A DNA stretch of 63,207 nt, counting the filler, from Stramenopiles sp. TOSAG23-3 (Eukaryota): NCBI GenBank assembly GCA_900128585.1. It is 5 parts of 5 records of this genome, joined end to end, with 100 filler letters (N's around TTAATTAATTAA, not from the genome) between each part and the next. Parts side by side here need not be neighbours in the genome. Positions count along the whole stretch, not along the records: positions 39,505 to 59,054 come from LT642397.1; 4 more parts are not named here. One strand, written 5' to 3'. This document shows, in pieces, positions 12,495 to 49,433 of this stretch; positions within the stretch are counted from its first letter, which is position 1; every line of letters begins with the position of its first letter. The notes beneath the pieces were generated by a model. That model ran no database searches. It saw only the letters and a list, made by a program, of their open reading frames with translations, and had not been told where the DNA came from. Made by a program: the position numbers and the translations under genes.

Positions 12495-13847
12495 TCACTT
12501 CTCTACTTTTGATTCTTTCTTCGGTGATGAGGGGGCGCTTTCTGCCCGCACAGGGGTCTCCGCGCCCCCATCGTTATCTTCCGGGTCTGCTGTGCTTCCA
12601 CCAGCCCACACTGCAGCGGCAAGCTTCTTCGCCCTTTTCTTTATCTTGGTCTTCTTCTTTTTCTTCCTGGACTTGGATTTGCTGGGAGAGCCTGTCTTTT
12701 TGGGAGAGGAGGTTCCGACCGATCTATTCCGGGAGGGCGAGGACCGCTTCGGGCTCAATGCTTTGCCGTCACCGTCTGTTTTGCTCTGTGCTACCTTCTT
12801 TGGTTGCCCCCCATACTTGTCAATGAAATTTTTTGGAAGTTTACCACAGCCTGCATACGTTTCAAAAATTGACTGAGAATCCTTTGCGTATTTATTTACA
12901 TTGCCCTCCAGTTTATCCCAGAGTTTTGCATTCATCTTCAGCACGCGCCACTGGATTTCGTCTTGGCTGTACATGTCCCTTCCAAACGGCAAGCCCAGGT
13001 AAACATAGTGCAGGGTGTGGTAGCACTCCTCGTACGACTTTTTGTAGTCGTTCAAAAGGTCTCCCAGGGACTTGAATGTTAGTGGCTTGTACATTAATGT
13101 GTCCTTGCGACTCAGGCCGATCGCCCCCCACTTTCCCGTGGATGACCTGATCCCTAGCACGATGTGCTCAAAAAAATGCCCCTCTACGTTCGAGCGGAAC
13201 GCGATCGGCATTCGGAACGCACTTTTCATGTCATTGGTCAGGTATACCCCCATGAAAACCGCCTCGATGCACTTTATTGGCAAAGGGTTGGCGATGATCT
13301 CTTTGGCTGTCCTGGCTATCCGGTACATCCCTTGCGTCTTTCTTACGTCGTAGTAGCTCGGGCGGTCGGTATGGTTGTATTCAAACCCTTCGATGTACTT
13401 TTGAATTCTAAAAATATTTGTATCCAATTCTGCGTGGTTTAACGCTGGCAGCACAGGCGCCTTTGGCGCAGATGGGACATCAGACCTTGCGGTTGCGTTT
13501 ATTTTGTTTATCAACGCTCTGAGCTGCTTCTCCGTCGTTGGCATGCGTTTCATCCCAAAGTGTTTTAATACCTTCTGGGCGTGCAGCGACAAGCCGTCGA
13601 AATCGGGTATAAAGTCTAAGTGCGACGGCTGGGCGGCAGCGTTCGACGGTGTCACTGGCGTAGGGGACGCCGGAGAAATGTTCTTCTCTGCAGATATTTC
13701 CGCCATCGCATCGATCGTAACCGAATCCGGCGATTGCACAGCATCTGATACAGTGGGAGTCTTAGGGGACACCAGGGCCTCCTCATCTTCTCCTGTGTCC
13801 ACCGAGGCCGGGGCCACCTGAGGCAGAGGCGGGTTGCTTTCCGACAT
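12495..13847 (-). CDS. VASH: Vasohibin-family tubulinyl-Tyr carboxypeptidase
   Basis: IQKYIEGFEYNHT, PLPIKCIEAVFMGVYLT (catalytic Cys), HIVLGI (His), GKWGAIGLSRKDTLMYKPLTF; ATG at 13847. Confidence 0.92.
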   Translation of the reverse strand: MSESNPPLPQVAPASVDTGEDEEALVSPKTPTVSDAVQSPDSVTIDAMAEISAEKNISPASPTPVTPSNAAAQPSHLDFIPDFDGLSLHAQKVLKHFGMKRMPTTEKQLRALINKINATARSDVPSAPKAPVLPALNHAELDTNIFRIQKYIEGFEYNHTDRPSYYDVRKTQGMYRIARTAKEIIANPLPIKCIEAVFMGVYLTNDMKSAFRMPIAFRSNVEGHFFEHIVLGIRSSTGKWGAIGLSRKDTLMYKPLTFKSLGDLLNDYKKSYEECYHTLHYVYLGLPFGRDMYSQDEIQWRVLKMNAKLWDKLEGNVNKYAKDSQSIFETYAGCGKLPKNFIDKYGGQPKKVAQSKTDGDGKALSPKRSSPSRNRSVGTSSPKKTGSPSKSKSRKKKKKTKIKKRAKKLAAAVWAGGSTADPEDNDGGAETPVRAESAPSSPKKESKVEK

Positions 13848-33968: not shown

Positions 33969-34662
33969 ATTATAGAGAACCATAACTAACTATATTCACC
34001 ATTTTTAAAGTGTTGTAGTTGAATGTTATTTTCATATTAATTAAGTAACTGGCTATGCGCTGATGAAAAATGGACCATTTAATTAATCCAACCATATTCC
34101 ATGTTGTACAATGTATATTATTAAATAGTTTAAACGCAAAACGGCAAAACGATATTCCTATAAATCAAAACGAATGTAATATAAAGATACAATACAAAAT
34201 AAATCTATTCTTGTGTGTTAAAATACGTTGGATTATATAAGTATATTACATATATAGATAGATGGACATGATTGTTGTTTTTTTTAACGATGAAGAAGGA
34301 GCTGTTGTTCCAAACCGACATTTTCTATTTCTTGATGCTATTTATATGTTCAAAGAGACAATGTTAGAGAGGTGGCATTTAGATTATTTTTTTATGAAGT
34401 CTTCAACGATTAAAAGTATGTCACTTATCGGATGGAAGAAAAGGAAAGTGTGAAAAGGAGAGAAAGGGATACAAGAAGGGGGATGAAAAGAAAAAACGAG
34501 AGAAGAAAACTGTGATTAGTCTCTTTTGTGCGTGTGTGTTTGTTTGTTTGTTTGTGTCAAATGCAAATCAATCCAGAGCCATTTCCAAGTAAGAAACAAG
34601 CAAAGACAGACGCAACCCGGCCTTCTGCACGGTCATTCGACGGGAAACAAGGAAACAAAAAC

Positions 34663-37437
34663 ATGAGCAATGTGGTAACCCCAGAAATGGCCGACAGGGC
34701 TGAAAACGGAGAAATGGGACAGAAGGGGGCGGTCCTGGTCAAGGAGAACCTTTCCTGGACCGACCGAGTCCTAGGCCACAAGTACTTTACGTTTACAATG
34801 TCGGCGTGGACGACGTGGGCCCTCTTTGGGGACGACCTCCGGATGCTCCTAACGGACAGGACGGCTGACAACTTTTTCTACGTAATGGCAATTATCGCGC
34901 TGCTGCTGTTCGTATTCGAGCTTGCCCTTAACTTTTACTCCAGAAAGAGCTGGCGCTTCGGGTTTTACTTCTGGCTGGACTTCTTGGCCACCCTCTCCCT
35001 GATCCCGGACATCGGGTGGATCTGGGACCCAATGTCCGCCGCCCTGCTTGGGGGGGACGACGAGGCGCAGAAAGCCGCCAACGCCGGAAAGCCGGCCCGG
35101 GCTGGCACGAAGACCGGCCGCGTCGTGCGAATCGTACGGTTGGTTCGTATGGTCCGAATGGTCAAGCTCTACAAAATGAACGGTGGGGACGACGACGACA
35201 TGAGGGTGCAGCGAATGCAGAAGCAGGCCCCTAGCAAGGTCGGGAGCGTGCTCTCTGAGAAAATCACCCGGAAGACCATCATCCTCGTCCTCTTCATGAT
35301 CCTCGCCATGCCCATCATTGACGGGTTTGGGGACACCTACAACATGTTCCAAGACTACGGCCTGCAGGGCCTCCACAGTGCTGCGGCCGACTTCAACTGC
35401 AACAACCGGCTCAACAGTGCCGGGCCATTCAAAATCGACCAGAATAGGTTCTTCAGGCCCATGCTTGAGAACTACGCCCGGGAGGCTGGGCGCTTGATGT
35501 ACTTGGAGGTCCATGGCATCGACAGGAACAGGACGGACGAGTGGTTGCCCATCATCAAGTGGGAATCCAAAGAACAGTACGACGCCACCTCGAAGGCCGC
35601 AACGGATGGGAAAGGCCAGGTCGAAATCAAGAACAACGAGCTCCGGGCATGGAGGACGTCCTGGGGGGAGGCGGAGTACGCGTTTGACATCCGAAAACTG
35701 GAGAAGATCGACACCCACTGGCGCCCGAGCGAACTCGGAAAGATCACCGTCAGCGGGTGCTACAACAGCTTCTTTGCGTCGAACTGCACCGACGAATCCA
35801 AATTCATGGTCGCCGACTCGAGCGAAAAAGGAAAGTGCACAAGTTTGGCCATTTTCAACATGAAACCGGAGGCCCAGGTTGCCGCGGGGATGAACATTTT
35901 GAAGACCCTCTTTGTCATGGGACTTTTGGTGTACGGGGCGCTGGCCTTCTCCAAGGACGCCCAGAAGTTGGTCATTGGGCCGATCGAGCGAATGCTTGAC
36001 ACGGTCCAGCTGTTGGCCGAAAACCCCCTTGCAAACACGGCGGACGCCGGGTTCGACCCCGACGAAGGGGACACAGCAAACCAGCAAAAGCAAGGGTACG
36101 AGACGGCCCTGCTGGAGCGGACCCTGAAGAAGGTCAGCAGCCTCATGCAAGTCGGTTTCGGGGCCGCCGGCGCGGAGATCATCGGGGGAAACATGCAGTC
36201 AAGCGACGGGGGCGTGGACGCCATGGTCGACGGTGTCATGATCACCGCCGTGTACGGCTTCTGCGACATTCGAAAGTTCACAGACACGACCGAGTGCCTT
36301 CAGGAAGAGGTCATGACGTACGTCAACAAGCTCGGCGACCTGGTGCACGGAAGCACGCACGCGTACTACGGAATGGCCAACAAGAACGTCGGGGACGCAT
36401 TTTTGCTGTCCTGGAAAATCTGCGACGGGCTGCTCCCTGGGTTCAACAACTTCAAGGACACCCAGCACGGCCCAGGGTTTTACGACTTCGACGAACACCA
36501 GCGCCTCCGCGCCCAGAAGAAGTGGGAGCGGGCCCTTGAGCAAGAGGAGGACTGGAACTACCGATTGAAAAAAATGTACCAAAACGATGCCCCGGAAGAA
36601 GACATCAAAAAGCTCCAGGCGGAGATGACCGCCCTTCCCCCGGAAGGTGAGATTAAACTTGCGCGCCCCAGCGCGGGCAAAGGAAAGAAGCTGCGCCACG
36701 TGAGCCCGACCGAGATGGCCGACAGCGCCTTCACGGCGTTCTTGAAAGCGTGCGTAGACTTGTACAACGCGAACGCCGACGGCAATTTAAGCATGTACTT
36801 GAAGTACCCGCGCGTAGTGCAACGGTTTGGGACGAAGTTCACGATTAAGATGGGATTTGGCATGCACGTGGGATGGTGCGTGCAAGGCGCGATAGGATCG
36901 AGTTACAAAATTGACTGCACGTATTTGTCGCCCCACTGTGAGATGGCCGACAGGCTGGAAGCTGGTTCGAAGATCTTTGAGACGCCAATAAACCTGAGCC
37001 ACTGGATGGTGGCGCTGATGTCCCCGACCATCAAGAAGCACTTGCGCGCGATAGACAGAATCAAAGTGTCCGGGGTACCAGTACCAATGACGGTGTACAC
37101 GTTCGACATTTACAATTATGTCAAAGGCGTGTTTACGCCAAGAGTTAGGGGGGGCCGACAGGCTTCGTGTGACTTTTTCGACGACAATCAATATGCTGAG
37201 CTGCAGCTTGGTATGGACCCAATGTTCTTGCCAAAGTTTCGCGAAGGTTACCAATATTACATACAAGGTTTGTGGGACAAGGCTCGGGATGTGTTTTTAG
37301 AAGTCTTAAAAATGCCAAGTGCCAATCAATACTTACGGCCAGACGGCCCCACCACCCAGCTAATGCAATACATGAGCGAACATGAATTTGTTGCCGGGAA
37401 ACAATGGAAGGGGGTGCATGAATTGGCGGGCTATTAA
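34663..37437 (+). CDS. Ion-channel/voltage-sensor-type class III adenylyl cyclase (ciliate/apicomplexan AC-alpha-like)
   Basis: S1-S4 with RVVRIVRLVRMVRMVKLYK; FCDIRKFTDTTE, NKNVGDAFLL, KMGFGMHVGW..GAIGSSYKID; C-terminal TPR-like helix. Start could instead be ATG 34561. Confidence 0.9.
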   Translation: MSNVVTPEMADRAENGEMGQKGAVLVKENLSWTDRVLGHKYFTFTMSAWTTWALFGDDLRMLLTDRTADNFFYVMAIIALLLFVFELALNFYSRKSWRFGFYFWLDFLATLSLIPDIGWIWDPMSAALLGGDDEAQKAANAGKPARAGTKTGRVVRIVRLVRMVRMVKLYKMNGGDDDDMRVQRMQKQAPSKVGSVLSEKITRKTIILVLFMILAMPIIDGFGDTYNMFQDYGLQGLHSAAADFNCNNRLNSAGPFKIDQNRFFRPMLENYAREAGRLMYLEVHGIDRNRTDEWLPIIKWESKEQYDATSKAATDGKGQVEIKNNELRAWRTSWGEAEYAFDIRKLEKIDTHWRPSELGKITVSGCYNSFFASNCTDESKFMVADSSEKGKCTSLAIFNMKPEAQVAAGMNILKTLFVMGLLVYGALAFSKDAQKLVIGPIERMLDTVQLLAENPLANTADAGFDPDEGDTANQQKQGYETALLERTLKKVSSLMQVGFGAAGAEIIGGNMQSSDGGVDAMVDGVMITAVYGFCDIRKFTDTTECLQEEVMTYVNKLGDLVHGSTHAYYGMANKNVGDAFLLSWKICDGLLPGFNNFKDTQHGPGFYDFDEHQRLRAQKKWERALEQEEDWNYRLKKMYQNDAPEEDIKKLQAEMTALPPEGEIKLARPSAGKGKKLRHVSPTEMADSAFTAFLKACVDLYNANADGNLSMYLKYPRVVQRFGTKFTIKMGFGMHVGWCVQGAIGSSYKIDCTYLSPHCEMADRLEAGSKIFETPINLSHWMVALMSPTIKKHLRAIDRIKVSGVPVPMTVYTFDIYNYVKGVFTPRVRGGRQASCDFFDDNQYAELQLGMDPMFLPKFREGYQYYIQGLWDKARDVFLEVLKMPSANQYLRPDGPTTQLMQYMSEHEFVAGKQWKGVHELAGY

Positions 37438-38035: not shown

Positions 38036-39229
38036 TCAAAACCCGTACTCCCGTCGAATCGCATCTACGTTGTACCTTGAACTTTGGTGTTCCATTTCTA
38101 GCTGGTCCAGCTGGCTCATTTCCCCGTGCCGCCTTTCCCACGTCTCTTGGTCTGGTTCGTCCATGAAATCGTCCCCATCGCCATAGACGCCCCCGCCGTT
38201 GCCGTACGAGTCATTGCCGTATTCATTTATGTTTTCCTTCCGTCCTAATCTAGAGATGCCCGAGTTCTGTTTGAAGCCCTGCGGCTTTGGTATGTTTTGT
38301 GCGTACATCCTCGCCTTCTCTCTGACCGAGAGCTTCTTCTCGTTTCCCTTCTTCGACTTCCTCTTCGACGCAGTTATCATCTTTTGGTTTATTGCGCGAA
38401 GGTTCAGTGAAAAATCCTTGACTCTCTGCTTGTTCGCCCGCTTCTTTATCAAGTGCTCTGAGTTCAAATCGGCCGGAAGCTTTCCGAGTTCTACGTACTC
38501 TTGGGAGTGGATCCGTTTGTACTCTGAGAGGGTCTTGGGTCGGTAATTCACGGACCTGCTTTGGCGGCTAAAGTACAGCCCCCCATTCGGAGAATTCTGC
38601 GCAAGCTCTTCGTTTCTATTTTCCCTTCGTTGGTACCCATTGTACGTCTCTGGGCGGCGCTGCGGCTGCTGGCGCTGCGGAGGGTGGCCCATGCCGCGGG
38701 GGCGGCGGGCCCCGGCACTGGCCATGGGCCTCCCTGCCCTGGGCGACTTTCCATTCCTTCTTCTCCCTTCGCGCGGCAGGCTGCCCCCTTTTCCACCGCT
38801 GTAGTCGAACTGAGAGTTCGATGGGCCGCTGTTGTACGGGATGGATTCCCCGCCCCCTCCCTGGTGCACCATTTGCGGGCCGCCGTAAGCGTTTTGCATG
38901 GGCGCGTTCCCCCCGCCGTTGTTGTAGTCAAACATCATGTGGCCCGGCTGCAGCGCCGCCTGGTGAAGGTCGTTCAGTCCTGGCCGCCCCCCCATCTGGG
39001 GTGGCATTTGCATCTGCATGCCGCCGCCGTAGGCCTGCTGCTGGTTGACTTGGTGCTGCGGCGGTTGTCGTTGCTGTTTCTGCTCCCTCCTATTCCCGTT
39101 CCCTTGTCGCTGTCTACTGACCACCCTTCCGTCCGAGACACGTTTGTGCTCACCGCTGGGCGTGGTGGTGGTCACCTTTCCCTTAAATCGAGCAATGAAG
39201 TTGCTCTGCGGCTGTCCCCTCCTCGGCAT
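38036..39229 (-). CDS. JHY-like (ciliary) protein with Q/G/N-rich disordered N-terminus
   Basis: C-terminal YRPKTLSEYK..LGKLPADL..SVREKARMYAQNIPKP..LEMEHQSSRYNVDAIRRE resembles the conserved JHY C-terminal region. Confidence 0.6.
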   Translation of the reverse strand: MPRRGQPQSNFIARFKGKVTTTTPSGEHKRVSDGRVVSRQRQGNGNRREQKQQRQPPQHQVNQQQAYGGGMQMQMPPQMGGRPGLNDLHQAALQPGHMMFDYNNGGGNAPMQNAYGGPQMVHQGGGGESIPYNSGPSNSQFDYSGGKGGSLPREGRRRNGKSPRAGRPMASAGARRPRGMGHPPQRQQPQRRPETYNGYQRRENRNEELAQNSPNGGLYFSRQSRSVNYRPKTLSEYKRIHSQEYVELGKLPADLNSEHLIKKRANKQRVKDFSLNLRAINQKMITASKRKSKKGNEKKLSVREKARMYAQNIPKPQGFKQNSGISRLGRKENINEYGNDSYGNGGGVYGDGDDFMDEPDQETWERRHGEMSQLDQLEMEHQSSRYNVDAIRREYGF

Positions 39230-39633: not shown

Positions 39634-42237
39634 TCATTTCTTCGTGTAAATAATTCTCTCCTGCGATACTGGCTCGATGTTGGCATAATTCGCGCCAGTT
39701 TTATGGTACGGTTTTGTCAAATCGCTATCCTTAAAGGGCACCTTTGGCAAACCCTCGACCCACTTTCGAGGTTTGGCACGCGCCTCCTCTTCGTGTTTGT
39801 TTATTTCACGCGGAGTCATGCTCATAGCTGGGTGGGCGTGCGGACTGGCAGGCAACTGATTTTGCGCCGCGCCGTAAGACGTCAAAAGGCCGTTCTTCAG
39901 GACAGCAGGGTCGTGCGATTTCAAAGGGTCCCTGTTCAAGTTCGACGCGGGGGGCTCTTTGGAGTGGTGATACGGCGACGTTTTGGCCCACAGGTCTGGG
40001 TCGTATGGACGGTTCTCGTATCGTTTTGACTTGTCGAACGCAGGGTGGGTAGGGTCTAAAATTTCATGGGCGTGGTACTCCAGCAGACTTGCCTGCACCA
40101 GTCCCGGTGTCGGGGCCTTCCCTTTCATTCTCCGCTTGCGCTCCTTGACGAAGACGCTGCCAGTTTCTTTTACCGCGGCGCTCAGTGTGAACAGTGCACT
40201 GGAGGTCATGTGCTTGCTCACGCCTATTGTTGACAATGTGTCTTGGTTCAAGTCGAGCTTGAGGCGAAACGTGTGCTCGCTACCGGGCTCCAACACTTTT
40301 TTCTTGTGCTTGTGGGCAATCTTGGCATAAATCTTGCCTTGCCTGGTCGTTTTGTACACGATACGTTTCCCGGTGTAATCGATGGCGAAGGCCAGTCCTG
40401 CAAACGCAACTGTGCGTTTTTCGCTAGGGTGTTTGTTGGTGACGGTTAACGTCACTTCATACGGCGTTTCGCTGCCGATGCTTAGTTGACCTGAAGGGAA
40501 CGACGCCTTGAAGTTGACGTCGCCCTTGCCGTTGGAGTGGCCAAAGAGAGATTTCTTCTTGGCGGCGATTGGCGCCTCGGCGACTTCGGCAAGCGAGACT
40601 GCCGGATCCTGGGGCTTCGCCTCCCGGAGGGGTACGCCTTCCTTGCCCGTGTGGATGTCCAGGCACTTCGGGATATTGCCGGCCGGGGTTGCTTTGCCAG
40701 GATGGCTCGGCTCTGGATATTTGTAGAAATTGGTGATGTCTAATTTACAATTCTTCGACGGGGACGCTTCGTCGTGCTCTTCCGTGTTGCACCCAGGCTT
40801 CGAGGTGACGATCAGCGTGCCCACCGTGTTCATCTCGTCCTCAAACGGGTCGGCGGCGTAAGAATCTTCGTAAACGAACGGTTCATTCGATCCCTGCTTC
40901 CGTACGTACAAGTTGATGTCCGCGTTGGTCTCTGAGATGACGAATTGGTTGTCGTAGCAACCATCTTTGCTTTTCTTCAGCCACTTGACTGGCGCGGGCC
41001 CCATTTGCGAGCGCCCTTGGCTATCCTCCTGTGGTGTGGCATCCACCGCGTTCCATCCCCTTGGGCTCCTTGTAAGGTCGGGTCGGCGGATCCACATTTG
41101 GTTCCAGACATGGAATCCCCACACGCTATCGCCGTGCCCGACACCAGAGCCCTTTTCCGGCTCTACCGGCAAGTAAATGCCCTCTGGGGTTGACTCGAAG
41201 AATTTGCTGATCGCTCGGTCTCCGTTAACGTCGTGCGCGCTCTGGAAGGTCGTCACCACGCTCGTCGGGATACCAAGCGATCGGCCAATCGTGGCCGTCA
41301 CGCCGGCAAAGACAAAGCATTGGCAGTACTGCACGTTGGTGTGACGCTCCTTTTCTGCCACGAGTGCCATGTACTGTTCTAGCAGCTGCGATGACCCCTT
41401 GAAGTTCCCTGGGTCCTGGCACTTTCGCATCCACGACTTTTTGTCTTTCGAACACTTGTACTGATAATTCCGGTCGTTGTTTTCTTCGTAGTCTCCTGCG
41501 CCCCACCTGCCGTAGCAAACCTCGTTGTTGATGGCGAACGTCAAGTGCCGCGCGATGACGTGGGGTTGACTGCGCTGCTCCAGTGTCAAGTGCCGCAGCA
41601 GGTGTAGCGCTGCCATAAGGTTGAGCCCACGGCCCGGGTCCAAGTCCCATACGTGCCCTTTGTGGTCGTCGCTGTTCCCTTGAAAAATCATCGTCTTGTC
41701 GTCCAACACGAAGTCGCGCCCCAAGTTGACCTTTTTGCTGCCGGTCCCTACGGGGCCCCGGGAGTCGAACGGGTTGAAGAGAAGGATGAACTCTGCTTCC
41801 TCGTCGCCCGCTTTCATTATGTACGCCCCGATCGCCGCATCTTTGTCCGACTTGATGGTCACGTCCCCATTGGCGGACCTATCAATTTTCCAGTTCGTTA
41901 CTGCCGTCTCCTTCTTCACGCCGCACTCGCCCAGACCTCTCACCGAACCTTTCAGCAGACCGCACTCTTGGAAAAATATTTGAACCTGATCGGTGGGCAA
42001 ATAATCCGACCGCCAATCCTTGACCGTGAAGGGTTTTCCACGCCGCACAATGAGACGGTTCTTTCCGAGCTTTGGAAGTTTGTCGTACGATTTGTCTTCC
42101 GTCACCAGCGGTTTGTCCCTCAAGTGGTCGGTGGCGTGCTTTTCGTTATTGGACGACGCCAACAGGTCCAAACTACCTGCACGGCAGCAGACACCTCCAA
42201 ACGTTGCAAAACAAAGAAATATCACAAATGCTTTCAT
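39634..42237 (-). CDS. Secreted animal-type transglutaminase (protein-glutamine gamma-glutamyltransferase)
   Basis: Signal peptide; LIVRRGKPF; FILLFNPF; YCQCFVFAGV (Cys), SAHD, SVWGFHVWNQMWIRRPDL (His), GWNAVDATPQE (Asp), MGPAPV; C-terminal beta-barrel-like region. Confidence 0.9.
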   Translation of the reverse strand: MKAFVIFLCFATFGGVCCRAGSLDLLASSNNEKHATDHLRDKPLVTEDKSYDKLPKLGKNRLIVRRGKPFTVKDWRSDYLPTDQVQIFFQECGLLKGSVRGLGECGVKKETAVTNWKIDRSANGDVTIKSDKDAAIGAYIMKAGDEEAEFILLFNPFDSRGPVGTGSKKVNLGRDFVLDDKTMIFQGNSDDHKGHVWDLDPGRGLNLMAALHLLRHLTLEQRSQPHVIARHLTFAINNEVCYGRWGAGDYEENNDRNYQYKCSKDKKSWMRKCQDPGNFKGSSQLLEQYMALVAEKERHTNVQYCQCFVFAGVTATIGRSLGIPTSVVTTFQSAHDVNGDRAISKFFESTPEGIYLPVEPEKGSGVGHGDSVWGFHVWNQMWIRRPDLTRSPRGWNAVDATPQEDSQGRSQMGPAPVKWLKKSKDGCYDNQFVISETNADINLYVRKQGSNEPFVYEDSYAADPFEDEMNTVGTLIVTSKPGCNTEEHDEASPSKNCKLDITNFYKYPEPSHPGKATPAGNIPKCLDIHTGKEGVPLREAKPQDPAVSLAEVAEAPIAAKKKSLFGHSNGKGDVNFKASFPSGQLSIGSETPYEVTLTVTNKHPSEKRTVAFAGLAFAIDYTGKRIVYKTTRQGKIYAKIAHKHKKKVLEPGSEHTFRLKLDLNQDTLSTIGVSKHMTSSALFTLSAAVKETGSVFVKERKRRMKGKAPTPGLVQASLLEYHAHEILDPTHPAFDKSKRYENRPYDPDLWAKTSPYHHSKEPPASNLNRDPLKSHDPAVLKNGLLTSYGAAQNQLPASPHAHPAMSMTPREINKHEEEARAKPRKWVEGLPKVPFKDSDLTKPYHKTGANYANIEPVSQERIIYTKK

Positions 42238-43418
42238 TGTTCCTAAGCTCGCCTAACTTCCTTGGCCTAACTTCCCTTTTAACGTTCGTCGTAATGAAAC
42301 CGTTACGCCCGTTTCCCTTTCGTTTTTATAAGAGTGTACATTCCCTCCACACTTACACTTACAGTTTACTCCCAGAAACAAACAGATAAAATAATGTAGT
42401 AGTATAATATTATTATTTTATTAATAATTATTTTATTATATTATTATTATTAATTTTTTTACATCCAAATCTGTCATATTATAATATTATTAAGTACGAC
42501 TAAAATATCCAAATTACATTCAATAGTATGTAATATCTTAGTATATATAAATACACGACCTATCTGAAGGAAACAAAGGAATCCTTTTTTGTTTTGTTTT
42601 TTAATTAGGTACCGTATACCGAGGAGGAGAATGGAATATCAGATCCCCCCCCCCCCTCTTCTTCTCTTTTCTTCTCTTCTCTTCTTTTCTCTTCTTTTCT
42701 TCTTTTATCTTCTCTTCTTCTTTCTTTTCTTCTCTTCTTTTATCTTCTTTTCTTTTATCTTCTTTTCTCTTCTTCTCTCTTCTTCTCTCTTCTCTTCTCT
42801 TCGCTAAAAAAGAAAAGTAAATCCATTATTATTATTATTATATTCTATATAATATATATATATTTAAGGCATCATATTTGTTTTGATTAATTCTATTATT
42901 ATTATTATATAATTTAACATGTTTATTTATTATTACCTTCGTCTTATTCTTGAAGTATTAATTCCTTAAATGAAATTCAGTTGTAGTAGTAGTATATTAT
43001 AAAATATATAATAATACAGCAGTACAGCAGTATAATAAAATAATAATATAATTATTATTAATAATAATAATAATAATAAAATACTTGTATTTACTGTAGT
43101 ACAGTAGTAGTATCTTTAGTAGTACCAGGTAGTAGCATTATTATTTTTATTATTTTTTTTTTTTTACACTCCTCTTCTCCTCTTCTTCTTCTTCTTGTAG
43201 TATTTTTTTTTAAATAATAATAATAAATAATTATTAATTTTATTGAAAGTTGAAATAATATGAAATTATTTATTGATCAATTCAATTAATGGTAATTGGA
43301 GAATAATTCAATTTGACCCTTATTCTTGTACAAACAAACAACAGACAAGCAATCGCGAAGCGCAGAGGGAAAAAGAGGAAAACAACGGGATAGAATCCAT
43401 GGAACTATATATAGACGG

Positions 43419-45836
43419 ATGTCGAAGCACGGCGTTGTTGACCTGACGGAGTCCCCGGGGAAGGGGACAGGGGCAGGGGCGTCCTTGTCCGCGTCAGTCG
43501 AAGTGCCCCGGCCGCTGAAGCGTCAAAGGAGGGAGGCGGAAAGTGGTGGTAGGGAATGTGGTGCATGGTCCATGTCTACTCAGAAGGTATGGTTGAACCA
43601 ATCAGCAGAGCAGCCATGTGGGAAGACGTCCGTGGCAACAGCGGTCCTGTTCACTGATAGGAAGTTTCTGGCAGCCCCGTCTTCTATAGACGGGAGGAAC
43701 GGCGCACGGTCGTCGTCGAAAGCCTTCGCAAAGCCACCGAAGTGCCTCTGCAAGATTGAGGCGAGGGCAAAACGTGTGAATAAAGAAGGCCCCACTCAAG
43801 GACGGTATTTTTATGGGTGCACAAAGCCCTCCAAGTCCAGGTGCAAGTTTTTCCAGTGGGCAAAGGGAGAGCCGCACACCAAGGAGGCCCTCTCGTCGCA
43901 GTGGTTGCGTTTTTGTTCGCCCCAGTTCTGCCTCTCGAGCAAAACGCAGGGCGTCTGTGCAGCAGGCGCAGGCCGCAGGCAAATGCTGACGTTCTCCCCG
44001 AGCGACATTATTCAAGGTGGCGTTGGTGACTGCTGGTTCATTTCCGCTGCAGCTGTCGTTGCAGAACGGCAGGACTTAATTTCCAGGATCTTTTCAAAGC
44101 ACCTGTACAATTCCAATATTCCCACCAACGGCAAGCTGGACGTGCAGCTTTGCATCGATGGAAAATGGACCAGCGTCGTCGTCGACACGTTTTTACCGGT
44201 CAAGACAATAGAGTCGAAGACGGCCGCAAAGCAGCGATCCGCACTGGAGCAGTTTGGGATGCAGTTCGCTGCGACGTATGCTAAGCCGGGGGCCGGGAAC
44301 TCGTTGTGGGTCGCGTATTTGGAAAAGGCATACGCGAAAGCGTGCGGGAGTTACCAGGCGATCAGCGGGGGCGAGATCGTAGAGGCGATGGGGGTGCTCT
44401 GCGGCTGCCCAACGGAGGTAATATGTTTGAACGGCCCAACGTTCGATAGTGAGGTTGTTTGGGCACGGATGCTATCGTTCCTGTCGTCCGGGTTTCCCAT
44501 GGGTTGCGGAACGGCCTCGAGCGGGGAGGGCGTAGTTGGAGGCCATGCCTACTCAATATTGGACGTCAGGGAAGTGGCAGGTGTGAAACCAAGCCGACAG
44601 CGAACAATGAAGGAATTTTTCGGTGGCAGCAGCAGCAGCAGCGCGGGCGCCAAACCGCCGCCCTCTGAACACCTGTCGCACGAGGGCACGTTGCGGGTCA
44701 TGAAGATCCGAAACCCATGGGGAAAAAAGGAGTGGAAGGGGGCTTTTGGTGCAAAATCGGAGGTTTGGACGCAGGAGCTGCGGGACTTGCTGGGCCAGAG
44801 CGACAAGAACGACGGCCAGTTCTGGATGACGTACCAGGATTTTCAGCGACGGTTTGTCAACATAGACGTTGCAAAAATACACAAAGATTGGTTTGAAGCG
44901 GACTATGAAATTGACGATTCAGGCAGCAACGAAACTGGTGTGCTTTCGAAGCAAGTGGTTCAACTTCGAGTGTTCGAACCGACGTGGGTGCAGCTCTGCC
45001 TGTTTCTTCCCCTCAAACGAGGGAAAGTGGGGGATTACTCGGACGGCACTATATTGGTGATGAAGCGGAGGGCTGCGATGCACCAGCCCATCGAACTGGT
45101 CCAGCACCGGTTTAACTCGTACTGCCGTTGCGACCAAATAGAATTCGTCGCCGACGATACCAGCGCCACGTACGAAGTGTGCTTTATGAATTTTGGAGGA
45201 CACCCCACGCCGTCCGGGCAGGTACTGCCGAACCACGTCTTTCGCATTTTCAGCGCAAAACCGGTGTTTACAAAAGCAAGGCAGCTGTCCGTGCTGCAGC
45301 TGCAAGAGTACATTGCTTGCGTCCGTGGTTTTTTTCATCGGACTATCGTTTCGCGCCAGAGCAGGCCGGGTCTGGTGGGCCTCACGGAGGAGAAGCATTT
45401 TCAAAGGATTTTGAACGAGGAGGTATGTGTGAACCTGTGGTATTGCCGTGGAATATTTGTTATCGCTGTCACAAATCTTGGGACTTCGGAGCGGTGCATC
45501 TCGTTTCCAACCATCGATGGCGTAAAAGGTATCACAAAGGTCCACCCAAACGCGACCATGGGCGACGATGGTCGCTACCGTCTTGGGCTGAAACCGTTCG
45601 GCAAATCGCTGGTAGTCTGCGGTGCAGCCACGGAAGAGTACTCGATTGAGAAAGGCGGGGTTTTATTCTTGTACTTGCACCAAGGCTTCCGTGCAGTAGC
45701 TGCAAAGCCAGCGCCCGGCGGGGCGGCGACCAACTACGTTCACATACTCGATACTATGGAATCGATCTGCAACAACCCGTATATGTCGAAAAAACTTGAA
45801 ACTGTTGGACTGTTTCAATTTGTTGGTTTGTTCTGA
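43419..45836 (+). CDS. GRF zinc finger-calpain (CysPc) protease
   Basis: GRF finger PKCLC..VNKEGPTQGRYFYGC..CKFFQW; catalytic QGGVGDCWF, GHAYSIL, IRNPWG; W.AYLEKAYAK; NDGQFWM; calpain-III-like C-terminus. ATG at 43419. Confidence 0.9.
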   Translation: MSKHGVVDLTESPGKGTGAGASLSASVEVPRPLKRQRREAESGGRECGAWSMSTQKVWLNQSAEQPCGKTSVATAVLFTDRKFLAAPSSIDGRNGARSSSKAFAKPPKCLCKIEARAKRVNKEGPTQGRYFYGCTKPSKSRCKFFQWAKGEPHTKEALSSQWLRFCSPQFCLSSKTQGVCAAGAGRRQMLTFSPSDIIQGGVGDCWFISAAAVVAERQDLISRIFSKHLYNSNIPTNGKLDVQLCIDGKWTSVVVDTFLPVKTIESKTAAKQRSALEQFGMQFAATYAKPGAGNSLWVAYLEKAYAKACGSYQAISGGEIVEAMGVLCGCPTEVICLNGPTFDSEVVWARMLSFLSSGFPMGCGTASSGEGVVGGHAYSILDVREVAGVKPSRQRTMKEFFGGSSSSSAGAKPPPSEHLSHEGTLRVMKIRNPWGKKEWKGAFGAKSEVWTQELRDLLGQSDKNDGQFWMTYQDFQRRFVNIDVAKIHKDWFEADYEIDDSGSNETGVLSKQVVQLRVFEPTWVQLCLFLPLKRGKVGDYSDGTILVMKRRAAMHQPIELVQHRFNSYCRCDQIEFVADDTSATYEVCFMNFGGHPTPSGQVLPNHVFRIFSAKPVFTKARQLSVLQLQEYIACVRGFFHRTIVSRQSRPGLVGLTEEKHFQRILNEEVCVNLWYCRGIFVIAVTNLGTSERCISFPTIDGVKGITKVHPNATMGDDGRYRLGLKPFGKSLVVCGAATEEYSIEKGGVLFLYLHQGFRAVAAKPAPGGAATNYVHILDTMESICNNPYMSKKLETVGLFQFVGLF

Positions 45837-45900
45837 AGGCAAAATCTGAGATTTTAAACGAAAAAGATACGCGCTGAGGCCATACTTGTATATAAAATAA

Positions 45901-45961
45901 AAAAATTATATTGTATTGTTTTAAGACTCTCATTTTAAATCAATTACTATTGCAGTTCCAA
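45901..45961 (+). repeat. Dispersed ~60-nt element, core TTTTAAGACTCTCATTTTAAATCAATTACTA (copy 1)
   Basis: Near-identical to 63123-63182. Confidence 0.8.
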
Positions 45962-46787
45962 TTACGAATAATAGAATTCAACGCTATAATAATCTATAAA
46001 ATTTGACAATCCTGTAGTAGTACCAGGTAGAACGTAAAACGGCAGCAAGTCGATGGAATATATATTCTCTAGTTTAGTATTTTAATAATAAACATATACA
46101 TATACATAGCATTTAAAACGAATTAGGCCAATCACAGATATAAGCCTCCTCTCCTCCTCCTTCTTCTTCTTTCTTCTTTCTTCTTCTATTCCTCCTCCTT
46201 CTTTTTCTTTCTTCATTCTTCTTCTTCTTTTTCTTCAACACACAACAGCGCTGGTGGTGGTGTGGTTAGGAAGAACAAGAAGAGAAGAAGGACGTATGAA
46301 GGAAGAAGAGATAGAAGATATAGAAGAAGAAGTAAAAAAAAAAATTATTTATATATTAATAATTATTAATAATATAATAATAATTAATTCTTCTTCTTCG
46401 ACTGGTTCGTTCATCGGCGGTACGTACTTTATATTATACTTGGTACTACACTTTGATTTCACAACACAGTAATTAATTAAATGGTTCCTTTCAAGCAAAA
46501 TGAATGAATTGAAATGGGAACAATTTCAAGCGGTAGGTAGTATCATTACATACCGAATGCTGGTCGTTGTTACTTTCTTACTTTCTTTCCTTTGTTCCTT
46601 CGCTCGTTGTTGTTGAATTCGTTCTATCTTCTTGTTTTGCCGTTGGTGTAGTATTTGGATATACGACACCGTTTTTGGCGTCTGGGGTAGTATAGAAAAA
46701 GAAGGATATCGCATATAACCATATTGGTATTTGTAGTTGCCAGTTTGTTGTATTTTTGAAGCGATTCATTTTTGAGAATTCGGGATC

Positions 46788-49433
46788 ATGTCTACTCAGG
46801 ACGATGATGTACCTACCGACGTAGAAGAGCTGAGGAAGTTGGTTCTGATGCTTCAGAAGCAGTTGGCGGCCGTGGGCGTAGACCCAACCGCTGCAGCGAT
46901 CTCACTCGACGAGGCCAAAGAGCAACTGGGCGCTGCACTTAACCGGTTGATGGGCGGGGACATGTCTGCCCAAGCGGAGTACGACAAATGGGACCGGTTG
47001 GTGTCGTGCCACCCTGAGCACTTGGAAGAGCAGGAACGCCTAGAGCAAGAGTGGGAGGACAACATAAAATCAGAGTGCCAAGAAGCACTGGTGACTATGC
47101 AAGGAATAGTCCCGAAAAACATCAAAGACATTAGCTTGGCAGAGCTTGGAGACTTACCCGGCATGCACAAATCACTTGCAAAGCGCATTTCGCGCAAAAG
47201 AGCGCTGTGGCTGCTGCACACTCCGCCGGCCGATATCGCAAAGTTCCATGCCGCCGACTTGATGATAAAGTACACGGTGAATGGCCTCGACTTTCGGGAG
47301 TTAAAGGCCCTGTACGCGGTGGTTCCAGAAGAGATGGAGAACGATGGGGACGGGAGAAAGGCGGAGTGGCGAGAACAGCTTCGGGAAAAGGTCAAAGAAT
47401 TTAGCAACAAGCACGCCAATGGAAAACTAGAGCCGAGGAACACGATCAGCCCAGACTACTCAGAAAAGAAGAAAACCTCCCGGCGGAATTCCACCGGGTC
47501 GTTCTCAAGGAAGTCGGGCGGACTCTTGGGAGGGAACAAAAATTTAATGGCTTCTATTTTGGAGCAAAAGTTGAAACTAAAAGGTCCCGGGGGTGGAGGG
47601 AAGATTAAAAACAAGAAACTTGGCGGGATAGCCGCGTCATTGGAAGGGAAATTGTTCAAAGGGGGAAAGGGGCCAAAAATAAGTGGGAAATTGGGAGGGA
47701 TTGCGTCCGCACTGGAAGGAAAGCTGTTCAAACATGGCACCCCTCCGTCAGCGACGAAAAAGAAAAAAATGAAAGGCAAATTAGGAGGGATTGCAGCTTC
47801 TTTGGAAGGCCAACTATTTAAAGGAAAACCCTTGGGGAAAGCGCGCCGATCGTCAATGTCGATGATGGCTACCCCAGAGATCAAAGTTAAGCGACAGAGT
47901 CGACCTAAAAGTGAGAAAATGAAAGCGCTCTCCGCTAACCTGGAAGGGACGTTGTTTAAGAAAGGAAAGCCGTTCGCACCAACACAGAAAAAGGAAACAA
48001 CTCGCACAAGCCCGTCGCGGAAGCGGGCGAAAAAGCAAGACTTGGCAGGGATGCTGGTGCGAAGGCTGGCATCGGTGCAAGCAGCATTGGAGAAAGTAGA
48101 AAAGAAAACTAAATCGCCAAAGAAACTGAGTGTGAAGTCATCGAATTCTTGGATCAAGAGCAAGGGGAGTGGTGACATGCCGGCCGTCGTCGACACTTCC
48201 GAGGGGGACAACGATAAAGAGAACAACGTCGATCCTCGCCCGGTTGTATTGATAAAGTCACAAAAGAATGTACATAAGGGGGTTACCGTGGAACCGCCTA
48301 GCCCTAAAGCACTACCAACACGCGCACCGAACTTGCAGACTACGGCAAAAGCTGATGCGGCAGAATCTGAAACAAAGGCCCGGGCACAGTCAGACCTCGA
48401 CTGCGGGGGGACTCCGGACATTCCCACGCCCACCGAGGTACCTCAACCACAGCCGTCGGGGGTAGAAGGACCGCGAGAAGAAACGGATCTAGGGAGCACG
48501 GGCGTCGTGGTTTCAGAAAACAAGGAAATTACGAGCCCGGGAAACCCGTCCGCTGAGCTGGACGTGGCGACGAAAGAGGGAGAAAAGCCGCAACGTGCCG
48601 AGACCGAGATACCCGAGAAGAAACCAGAAGAGGCCTCAACAAAACCGGAACAAAGCGTAATCAGAGGGGACGGTATCGTTTTGTCCAAAGGAATAGTTAT
48701 TTTAGCCACACTTTTTATTTTTCTGTGCGCCGGAGTAACCGCGCATTTTGCTTTTAATAGATTCAACCCTCATGGGCATTACAAGTCAGTCGTGTGGAGC
48801 TCGCCAAAATGCAAAAGCGAAGTATTTGTGCCCGAAGGGGTGACAGACATCCCAGATATGGCTTTGTTTGGGTGCACTTCGATAACAACGTTGCACTTGC
48901 CGAGCACGCTGAAAAAAATAGGGAAAAACGCTTTCAATGGTTGCACAAACCTGCAAAAAATCGAAAATGTTCCCCGGCAACTAAATTTTATTGGGGACAA
49001 TGCTTTTAAGAGTTGCAATGGACTGACAGAAGTCAGGTTGCCCAAGAAAGTGAAGGTTGGGACGGATGCATTTCATGGTTGCACTAACTTGATTTTGCGT
49101 GCGCAAGAAGATGGCCAAATGGAGAATGGCCAGAACAACAAAGAATCATCCAACGCCAATTACGTGTTGAGTAGCACACGCACGCCCATGTTGCCGCAGC
49201 AAATGCACAAAATCGCGAGAACATGCAAAGCAAAGGGGGGATATGGGTCTGGCTGCGTGTATACGTCCGCGGGGGTAGTGCAAACGGTAGACGGCGTGTC
49301 CTCCCCACCTATCCCCGAAGATAAGAAGCCAACTGCGGAACAAGTTGCGGCTGCCGCAAAGGCTAGGCGGGAACAAAACAAACGTTCAAAATACAAGCAG
49401 TGGCAAGAGGAAAGAAAGAAAGGAAAAAAGTAA
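46788..49433 (+). CDS. Single-pass membrane protein: helical N-terminal domain, LGGIAASLEGKLFK repeats, C-terminal BspA-type (LRR_5) repeats
   Basis: TM helix GIVILATLFIFLCAGVTAHFAF; VPEGVTDIPDMALFGCTSITTLHLPSTLKKIGKNAFNGCTNL repeats. Confidence 0.7.
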   Translation: MSTQDDDVPTDVEELRKLVLMLQKQLAAVGVDPTAAAISLDEAKEQLGAALNRLMGGDMSAQAEYDKWDRLVSCHPEHLEEQERLEQEWEDNIKSECQEALVTMQGIVPKNIKDISLAELGDLPGMHKSLAKRISRKRALWLLHTPPADIAKFHAADLMIKYTVNGLDFRELKALYAVVPEEMENDGDGRKAEWREQLREKVKEFSNKHANGKLEPRNTISPDYSEKKKTSRRNSTGSFSRKSGGLLGGNKNLMASILEQKLKLKGPGGGGKIKNKKLGGIAASLEGKLFKGGKGPKISGKLGGIASALEGKLFKHGTPPSATKKKKMKGKLGGIAASLEGQLFKGKPLGKARRSSMSMMATPEIKVKRQSRPKSEKMKALSANLEGTLFKKGKPFAPTQKKETTRTSPSRKRAKKQDLAGMLVRRLASVQAALEKVEKKTKSPKKLSVKSSNSWIKSKGSGDMPAVVDTSEGDNDKENNVDPRPVVLIKSQKNVHKGVTVEPPSPKALPTRAPNLQTTAKADAAESETKARAQSDLDCGGTPDIPTPTEVPQPQPSGVEGPREETDLGSTGVVVSENKEITSPGNPSAELDVATKEGEKPQRAETEIPEKKPEEASTKPEQSVIRGDGIVLSKGIVILATLFIFLCAGVTAHFAFNRFNPHGHYKSVVWSSPKCKSEVFVPEGVTDIPDMALFGCTSITTLHLPSTLKKIGKNAFNGCTNLQKIENVPRQLNFIGDNAFKSCNGLTEVRLPKKVKVGTDAFHGCTNLILRAQEDGQMENGQNNKESSNANYVLSSTRTPMLPQQMHKIARTCKAKGGYGSGCVYTSAGVVQTVDGVSSPPIPEDKKPTAEQVAAAAKARREQNKRSKYKQWQEERKKGKK

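Follow-up and report, generated by a model that had tools for sequence, protein, structure and literature searches.

A GRF-finger calpain from a stramenopile carries a conserved PIP-box motif in the loop between its catalytic His and Asn

What is the task of a calpain that joins, in one polypeptide, a GRF zinc finger, an N-terminal match to the SUMO-interacting motif (SIM), and a match to the PCNA-binding consensus? The question is posed by an open reading frame (ORF) in a 63,207-nucleotide stretch of DNA from Stramenopiles sp. TOSAG23-3 (GenBank assembly GCA_900128585.1). This stretch, the window, consists of five parts of five records joined by filler letters, and the ORF, whose product is referred to as P0001, lies in the part taken from LT642397.1 (Table 1). 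By motif and conservation, the octapeptide QRTMKEFF between the catalytic His and Asn of P0001 is a canonical PCNA-interacting protein (PIP) box, from which PCNA binding is predicted. An earlier note on this DNA, made from the sequence alone, had gone further and read the protein as a convergently evolved, replication-coupled protease for DNA–protein crosslinks (DPCs).

P0001 belongs to the published Zf_GRF-CysPc architecture, in which one polypeptide combines a GRF finger with a calpain domain. Zhao et al. listed this architecture in 2012 (BMC Evol Biol, PMC3563603; this paper, PMC7782752, PMC7067828, PMC2746569, and bioRxiv 10.1101/2022.07.21.500989 are cited from excerpts of their text), and the excerpt is consistent with the earlier statement that GRF–calpain fusions were known without an assigned function. 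GRF-calpains among the matches listed bear the names, as given by their sources, of red and green algae, chytrid fungi, dinoflagellates, haptophytes, and chlorarachniophytes; named homologs among them (Rhodosorus, chytrids, Symbiodiniaceae, and Bigelowiella) are 31–44% identical to P0001. The comparative set of 226 proteins comprises the query, the best 120 of 1008 word-index matches, and 150 of 8841 matches from an exhaustive representative search (E up to 0.001).

The His–Asn loop and its PIP box

As the earlier note had it, the motif sits within a Ser/Gly-rich insertion that follows the catalytic His and precedes the Asn. The His–Asn beta hairpin carries this insertion at its tip. The strict pattern, Q..[ILM]..[FY][FY], arises in 3.0% of 20,000 shuffles of P0001. 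A single occurrence is thus only mildly unlikely by chance, and the weight of the assignment comes from conservation.

The stretch from His to Asn could be parsed in 212 of the 226 proteins, which divide, by the sequence around the Asn, into 123 of an ‘RNPWG’ type, mostly with long loops, and 89 of an ‘RNPHG’ type, with short or different loops. A canonical form of the pattern, Q..[ILMV]..[FYW][FYWL], occurs in the loop of 69/123 ‘RNPWG’ proteins versus 2/89 ‘RNPHG’ proteins, and the strict form in 42/123 versus 2/89. Its Q is placed exactly 18 residues past the catalytic His in 64 of the 71 canonical matches. Most of the other 54 ‘RNPWG’ proteins carry a degenerate motif (for example, QLKIEACF, QTKLTAFV, or the chytrid ...LHDYF), and those without any motif mostly have short loops. 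Within the same 123 proteins, the canonical pattern was matched 69 times at the loop site versus 11 times elsewhere, a ratio of about 280-fold per position.

The part of the loop that can be aligned across these relatives is limited to the consensus G-x-Q-x-x-[LIVM]-x-[DE]-[FY]-F, the rest being unalignable. In the 123-sequence alignment (A2), G occupies column 392 in 104/120 sequences, Q column 394 in 109/118, and L, I, V, or M column 397 in 114/114; D or E is found at column 399 in 82/114, F, Y, or W at column 400 in 93/114, and F at column 401 in 81/108. From column 402 onward, entropy exceeds 3 bits and gaps are numerous. Relatives that keep the motif share just about 30–40% core identity. 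As judged from these alignments, the loop signal is long retention of precisely the PIP consensus positions in an otherwise freely varying loop.

A tree was built from 196 sequences of the calpain core with the loop removed and was scored for the broader trait Q..[ILMV], which 108 of these sequences carry (the canonical form is present in 65). The trait requires 11 changes on this tree, compared to 56–65 for shuffled labels, and is concentrated in one 96-tip clade (support 0.76) in which 85 members carry it. Labels are shared among kin sequences, so that the result shows inheritance from a common ancestor rather than independent events, and the loose pattern yields false positives in other clades, such as in dinoflagellate loops. 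The motif that had been picked out in a single protein is therefore conserved across a deep clade, the opposite of the absence from orthologs that would have told against the earlier note, with the canonical form retained at the site by the 69 relatives counted above.

Other loops in the family show features of their own. In P0137, VIDLSS is found two residues after the PIP-like motif, in the same loop. A diatom-like clade of the ‘RNPHG’ type (e.g., P0068 and P0075–P0079) has a well-conserved, different His–Asn loop (..VEFFRDKL..GNVSGFTEYDG..); UIM domains are present there instead of the PIP loop, and several members have [VI][VI]DLT near the C-terminus.

In the predicted structure of the P0001 monomer, the mean predicted local distance difference test score (pLDDT) of the loop is 82 for residues 391–400, 63 for residues 401–410, and 82 for residues 411–420, and a helix is predicted at residues 397–401. 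A co-fold of the loop with PCNA, as suggested in the earlier note, was computed with a stand-in for the partner, the gene of an environmental eukaryote that was fetched from metagenome contigs by a degenerate pattern derived from two conserved PCNA motifs. Its full-length ORF was confirmed by its match to human PCNA chains (E 1e-116). Calpain residues 186–490, spanning the whole catalytic domain with the loop, were supplied with this PCNA, and the alignments supplied along with them were not used by the tool. The interface score from aligned errors (ipSAE) was 0.68 (0.68, 0.67, and 0.70 in the individual runs), while the best of three controls scored 0.01; contact agreement between runs was at least 86%, and partner pLDDT was at least 87. 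Among 78 solved complexes, 51 reach the mark set for this tool; among 108 mismatched pairs, 2 do.

The confident interface comprises calpain residues 393–402, together with 370–371, 417, 439–442, and 446–449, and PCNA residues 24–25, 40, 42–47, 124, 126–129, 208, 232–234, 250, and 252–255. Calpain residues 393–402 themselves contact PCNA residues 40, 42–47, 126–129, 232–234, 250, and 252–255, a surface that we take to be the hydrophobic pocket, interdomain connector, and C-terminal strand engaged by known PIP peptides. The co-fold thus placed the motif in the canonical pocket, and as a model it supports, without showing, binding of the calpain loop to PCNA.

Protease core, GRF finger, and N-terminal modules

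The Pfam scan of P0001 (E up to 0.1) listed only Peptidase_C2 (PF00648; residues 192–485, E 1.3e-56, 192.3 bits against a cut-off of 23.8) and Zn_ribbon_GRF (PF06839; residues 107–148, E 1.4e-10, 41.5 bits against a cut-off of 25.9), with no SprT or WLM domain. The zinc finger had previously been placed at about 43,740–43,860, in close agreement with the Pfam boundaries, and VVDLT, PLKRQRR, and QRTMKEFF were recovered in the ORF at exactly the positions given to them by the earlier note. The catalytic triad described there is likewise intact: Cys205, His376, and Asn432 are all invariant in a 30-sequence alignment (A1), and in A2, His376 and Asn432 are invariant (123/123) and Cys205 is retained in at least 90% of the sequences.

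An AlphaFold2 model built on the 123 relatives (mean pLDDT 77.8, predicted template modeling score 0.81) superposes on the calpain-1 core (1kxr_B) over 286 residues between model residues 66 and 487, with a Z score of 32.5 and a root-mean-square deviation (rmsd) of 2.2 Å. Foldseek matched the model to m-calpain (3bow_A, E 2e-24), which aligns to model residues 61–614 (Z 31.8, 408 residues). Because this alignment extends to residue 614, the core is followed by a beta sandwich resembling calpain domain III (CBSW).

In the GRF finger, the four Cys residues (C109, C111, C134, and C142) and the G128-R129-x-F131 element are invariant in A1, and the predicted finger superposes on the GRF of NEIL3 (7jl5_B) over 44 residues (Z 7.6, rmsd 0.8 Å, 36% identity). 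The structural alignment to the calpain-1 core begins at model residue 66–73, upstream of the finger, and the strand segment LFTDRKFLAAPSSIDGR, which also precedes it, is nearly invariant (D80, F83, S89, and G92 each at least 90% in A1). On this basis, the GRF finger is an insertion that follows the FxDxxF...S-I-D-G segment, within the N-terminal portion of the protease core, and does not form a domain of its own at the N-terminus.

Two short elements outside the core recur among relatives. The W-x-[LIVM]-S strand (AWSMST), which precedes the calpain segment, is common to close relatives, and its region was modeled as strands with a pLDDT of about 80. At the other end, P0001 terminates in the hydrophobic tail GLFQFVGLF, and similar tails of the form [LMF]F..[VL].L[FL] end many relatives (P0005, P0007, P0008, P0010, P0011, P0021, and P0032). 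This tail could be a further docking motif.

The SIM-like motif of P0001 has the [VI][VI]-D-L-T core and an acidic/Ser flank, and it lies in a tail with a pLDDT below 50. At residues 4–10, such a motif is present in P0001 and in four of its six closest relatives (P0002, P0003, P0005, and P0006); it was not found at the N-terminus of P0004 and P0007, the models of which may be truncated. Across the 226 proteins, [VIF][VI]DL[TS] occurs outside the calpain core in 34, compared to a shuffle mean of 2.0 and a maximum of 8, a 17-fold enrichment. These recurring motifs are typically acidic or Ser-rich downstream, are N- or C-terminal, and accompany both loop types. The SIM-like motif, the conservation of which the earlier note had proposed to test, keeps its position in five of the seven closest sequences; elsewhere, the motif appears at other N- or C-terminal places. 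Matches to [VIL][VIL]DL[TS] near residue 300 (LLDLT, LVDLT) are part of the EALxDLTG sequence in the core of the calpain and do not enter the count. Basic clusters resembling a nuclear localization signal (NLS), defined as K[KR].[KR] or four basic residues, precede the GRF finger in 35 of 77 relatives versus 8.8 expected from shuffles.

Pfam scans of the N-terminal modules covered 119 relatives (58 + 61). At or above cut-off, UBA_4 was found in 16 of them and Smr in one (P0156, C-terminal, 33.8 bits; P0144 has an Smr match below cut-off); CUE was found in two (P0162 and P0167) and a RanBP-type zinc ribbon (NZF) in two. The GRF finger was listed in 56/58 and 32/61 of these proteins, several below cut-off, with many others N-terminally truncated. 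A motif resembling a ubiquitin-binding motif (UBM), V-D-x-x-V-W-x-x-L-P-x-x-I-x-x-E-L, precedes the GRF in 16 of the 123 relatives, and a survey of N-terminal motifs in these relatives found it absent from P0001. A profile of 15 such segments searched against the PDB matched the UBM of Pol iota (2kwv_A, E 1e-10), REV1 (2.5e-9), and HUWE1 (3.6e-5), the next unrelated match being at E 0.046. Among 87 relatives with at least 150 residues before the catalytic Cys, 47 carry at least one recognized reader. The N-terminal modules thus vary among relatives, and those that are recognized by sequence are of ubiquitin- or SUMO-binding types. A separate observation concerns P0009, which starts with MSDIRSFF and has a UBZ-like C-x2-C...H-x3-H element (WRNIP1 UBZ, below cut-off).

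The gene, matching RNA-library contigs, and neighboring genes

The ORF is uninterrupted and starts at the first ATG downstream of in-frame stops. Contigs from seawater RNA libraries cover pieces of the gene within 43,349–45,961 at 95–100% identity, with no joints or indels, and span the stretches coding for the PIP box and the SIM; they are uninformative on strand and expression level. The PIP codons are identical in the gene and the contigs, and the SIM codons differ solely in one third base, at 43,448. The intervals 42,900–43,348 and 45,962–46,400 have no contig coverage, which by the rule of the tool is no evidence for transcript ends. The gene is present in seawater and marine RNA libraries from several studies.

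Genes flanking the calpain gene are unrelated to it and lie on either strand (transglutaminase-like, BspA-type leucine-rich repeats (LRRs), and others). Elsewhere in the window, the vasohibin homolog, the ion-channel/cyclase ORF, and the Jhy-domain protein listed in Table 1 point to a flagellated or ciliated protist. ORFs throughout the window are long and free of introns, with a GC of about 0.5, and are separated by AT-rich spacers; GC along the window ranges from 0.34 to 0.56.

Table 1. Positions, in window coordinates, of the calpain gene, its parts, and other genes
Feature	Position	Strand	Remarks
Whole ORF (GRF-finger calpain, P0001)	43419..45836	+	805 aa plus stop, uninterrupted
Disordered N-terminal tail	43419..43553	+	aa1-45, AlphaFold2 pLDDT below 50
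SIM-like VVDLT, then ESP	43434..43448	+	aa6-10; VVDLTESP, aa6-13
NLS-like basic cluster PLKRQRR	43512..43532	+	aa32-38
Short W-x-[LIVM]-S strand (AWSMST)	43566..43583	+	about aa50-55
Calpain-core N-terminal strand segment LFTDRKFLAAPSSIDGR	43653..43697	+	aa79-93, upstream of GRF
GRF zinc finger, inserted in calpain core	43737..43862	+	aa107-148, Pfam
Calpain catalytic domain	43992..44873	+	Peptidase_C2, Pfam aa192-485
Catalytic Cys205 codon	44031..44033	+	in GDCWF
Catalytic His376 codon	44544..44546	+	in GGHAYS
His–Asn hairpin-tip insertion loop, Ser/Gly-rich	44580..44687	+	about aa388-423
PIP box QRTMKEFF	44598..44621	+	aa394-401; matches Q-x-x-[ILM]-x-x-[FY]-[FY]
Catalytic Asn432 codon	44712..44714	+	in IRNPWG
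Beta sandwich after core, like calpain domain III (CBSW)	44886..45284	+	about aa490-622; strands predicted 492-622
C-terminal region	45285..45833	+	aa623-805; long helix, low-confidence beta region, hydrophobic tail; mostly pLDDT below 60
Hydrophobic C-terminal tail GLFQFVGLF	45807..45833	+	aa797-805
Vasohibin homolog	12495..13847	-	E 8.8e-56
ORF with ion-channel domain	34561..37437	+	single ORF; weak cyclase match
Jhy-domain protein	38036..39229	-	
Transglutaminase-like protein, animal type	39634..42237	-	Transglut_N plus core; hydrophobic leader at N-terminus
Protein with BspA-type LRRs	46788..49433	+	881 aa; predicted membrane span; KLGGIA.SLEG.LFK repeat x4

Proposed function, alternatives, and relation to known systems

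On balance, the evidence leans, by somewhat more than even chances, toward P0001 being a chromatin protease of calpain fold directed by PCNA, single-stranded DNA (ssDNA), and SUMO or ubiquitin, and organized like SPRTN, Wss1, GCNA, and FAM111A. Such a cysteine protease would be active and nuclear, and would be directed to chromatin instead of to substrates in the cytosol. Its disordered N-terminal tail would supply the SIM and the nuclear-import-like basic cluster, and a flexible loop would present the PIP box at the end of the His–Asn hairpin that is distal to the active-site cleft. Recruitment would occur at PCNA-loaded replication or repair intermediates that contain ssDNA: DNA-bound PCNA would capture the loop, the GRF finger would sense the adjacent ssDNA, and the SIM would read a modified chromatin protein, ubiquitin being read by the UBM, UBA, CUE, or NZF modules of relatives. 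The protease would then cut the modified protein, perhaps a factor of replication or repair that had become trapped or crosslinked.

Several points weigh against this interpretation. The motif region has a mean pLDDT of 82 and contains a predicted helix, and packing of the motif on the protease itself is possible. PIP–PCNA complexes have been solved in abundance, so that the co-fold may have passed by recall of look-alikes; its PCNA, moreover, is a stand-in from an environmental eukaryote, modeled with no use of alignments. The SIM is short, and its position is kept only in close relatives. The Pfam UBM model scores below its cut-off in all five relatives in which it appears (14.0–20.7 bits against 23.3), and 40 of the 87 relatives with at least 150 residues before the Cys have no recognized ubiquitin or SUMO module. 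The PIP box of SPRTN is described as dispensable for recruitment to forks (PMC7782752), so that the pathway can hardly be read from a PIP box by itself. Finally, the calpain of Plasmodium would by analogy support a nuclear location of the wider group and not a link to PCNA.

An alternative that builds on the ordered appearance of the motif would treat it as an intramolecular element, whether structural, autoinhibitory, or an autolysis site, in a nuclear or nucleolar calpain that is associated with nucleic acids and has another role; entry into the cell cycle and the biogenesis of ribosomes, proposed for the calpain of Plasmodium, are examples. The predicted helix at residues 397–401 and the pLDDT of 82 fit this idea, as do the conserved G392 and the hydrophobic residue 391 just upstream, which a pure PIP box would not need. 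Even so, the conserved positions match the PIP consensus exactly (Q, aliphatic, aromatic, aromatic), the remainder of the loop is hypervariable, and the co-fold, with the whole catalytic domain present, puts the motif in the PCNA pocket. In addition, 31 of the 69 loop motifs carry [TS][DE] at positions 5–6, a feature typical of high-affinity PIP boxes. The calpain of P. falciparum, nucleolar, essential, and tied to pre-S-phase development in the excerpted study (PMC2746569), lends the idea some weight and lacks the insertion altogether. An intramolecular role is accordingly considered unlikely, if still worth serious thought. It is far less probable that the motif is a PIP degron by which CRL4-Cdt2 would destroy the calpain on chromatin-bound PCNA in S phase and so limit the protease. 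Many relatives do carry Q-x-K-[VL]-T-D-[FY]-F, which presumably resembles a degron of the Cdt1/p21 type; a degron, however, requires both T-D and a basic residue at +4, and these occur together in 3 of the 69 loop motifs, the basic residue in 8. For P0001 itself, a PIP degron was rejected, since K-E occupies positions 5–6 and G-G-S-S follows, with S at +4.

The accessory modules allow a different reading again, in which the targets of the family are RNA or stalled ribosomes instead of DNA, with the GRF finger binding RNA and the readers recognizing ubiquitylated collided ribosomes, in the manner of Cue2-type CUE + Smr nucleases. Relatives with CUE (P0162 and P0167), with UBA_4, or with a C-terminal Smr (P0156, and P0144 below cut-off) invite this comparison. 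It is nevertheless improbable: the PIP box, the UBMs of the type found in translesion-synthesis polymerases, and the NLS-like clusters indicate PCNA and the nucleus; Smr reaches the cut-off in merely one of the 119 relatives; and the characterized GRF fingers bind ssDNA (bioRxiv 10.1101/2022.07.21.500989, as excerpted). Short linear motifs are often false positives, and the shuffle frequency of the strict PIP pattern given above would allow all of the motifs to be chance matches or lineage noise in an ordinary regulatory calpain whose zinc finger has no special targeting role. The conservation counts already disfavor this explanation, which is regarded as very improbable: the position of the PIP motif is fixed and conserved across relatives at about 30–40% core identity, the SIM-like motifs are 17-fold above shuffles, and the accessory modules are coherent.

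The reading as a chromatin protease directed by PCNA, ssDNA, and SUMO or ubiquitin can be carried further with decreasing confidence. The module logic of DPC proteases invoked by the earlier note is matched by the PIP box, the SIM, and the ubiquitin readers of relatives (excerpts of PMC7782752); DPC repair as the specific role of P0001, with which that note had concluded, is a doubtful though conceivable extension. It may tentatively be suggested that GRF-calpains with a PIP box in the His–Asn loop form a further, independently evolved class of replication-coupled proteases acting on DPCs or protein obstacles. If that minority reading is right, the clade would be widespread in algae, chytrids, and marine protists, the core-inserted GRF finger might serve as an ssDNA-sensing switch, and the SIM, UBM, UBA, CUE, and NZF heads could be interchangeable, selecting SUMOylated or ubiquitylated targets at PCNA.

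A search of the open-access literature, the scope of which did not extend to subscription-only papers, found no paper linking a calpain to a PIP box, PCNA docking, a SPRTN/Wss1-like function, or crosslink repair. The Zf_GRF-CysPc architecture itself was known; what appear to be new observations are the conservation of the PIP motif in the loop, the presence of UBM and SIM heads, and the position of the GRF finger inside the core. The DNA-clearing proteases SPRTN, Wss1, GCNA, FAM111A, and Ddi1 were discovered singly, in yeast and animals. If the proposal is true, unrelated catalytic folds would repeatedly have been fitted out to one plan, in which a protease is combined with ssDNA binding, docking to PCNA, and a reader of ubiquitin or SUMO; a function would be gained by the calpain subfamily of the 2012 catalog, to which none was found assigned in the literature searched; and calpain biology would gain a nuclear, DNA-linked branch.

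Comparison with known systems places P0001 between two groups of proteins. On the calpain side, the excerpt describing the Zf_GRF-CysPc calpains gives no function for them and does not mention a PIP box, SIM, or UBM (PMC3563603). Plasmodium calpains are assigned the same configuration in a 2026 review (PMC13413365). The P. falciparum protein is nuclear (nucleolar), has an NLS, and resembles nucleic-acid-interacting proteins in its N-terminal region, according to the excerpts (PMC2746569), and a nuclear location is predicted for P0001; unlike P0001, it is myristoylated, palmitoylated, and about 2,000 residues long, and its spacing of 20 residues between His1389 and Asn1409 leaves no room for the loop.

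On the side of DPC proteases, a protease is combined with a DNA-binding domain and with UBA, UBZ, or SIM modules, and SPRTN and FAM111A have a PIP box, as excerpted from a review whose available text does not mention calpain (PMC7782752). SPRTN and Wss1 share with P0001 the combination of a protease, a DNA-binding element, a PIP box (SPRTN), and a UBZ or SIMs (Wss1, GCNA), and they are activated by ssDNA or junctions (PMC7782752). They are HExxH metalloproteases, in contrast to the Cys-His-Asn calpain, and the folds are unrelated; no SHP or VIM p97 motif was seen in P0001, although no search aimed at such motifs was made. FAM111A is likewise a protease that interacts with PCNA; it has a PIP box and a region that binds ssDNA, and it clears protein obstacles at forks (excerpts of PMC7782752 and PMC7067828). 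It differs from P0001 in being a trypsin-like serine protease and in having no GRF finger. FAM111A has its PIP box in a terminal region, whereas that of P0001 is part of a catalytic-domain loop.

Among proteins of DNA repair and damage tolerance, Pol iota and REV1 have UBMs that are matched by the N-terminal motif of at least 15 relatives (E 1e-10 and 2.5e-9, respectively), and Pol iota uses a PIP box. P0001 differs from them in having a SIM-like motif in place of a UBM and in an unrelated catalytic function. APE2 comes close to P0001 in plan: besides its catalytic domain, it has a PIP box and an ssDNA-binding Zf-GRF (bioRxiv 10.1101/2022.07.21.500989, as excerpted). The GRF of NEIL3 superposes on that of P0001 at 0.8 Å. 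NEIL3 carries an NZF-type finger, and some GRF-calpain relatives carry one as well. In APE2 and NEIL3, the catalytic module is a nuclease or a glycosylase; in P0001, it is a protease.

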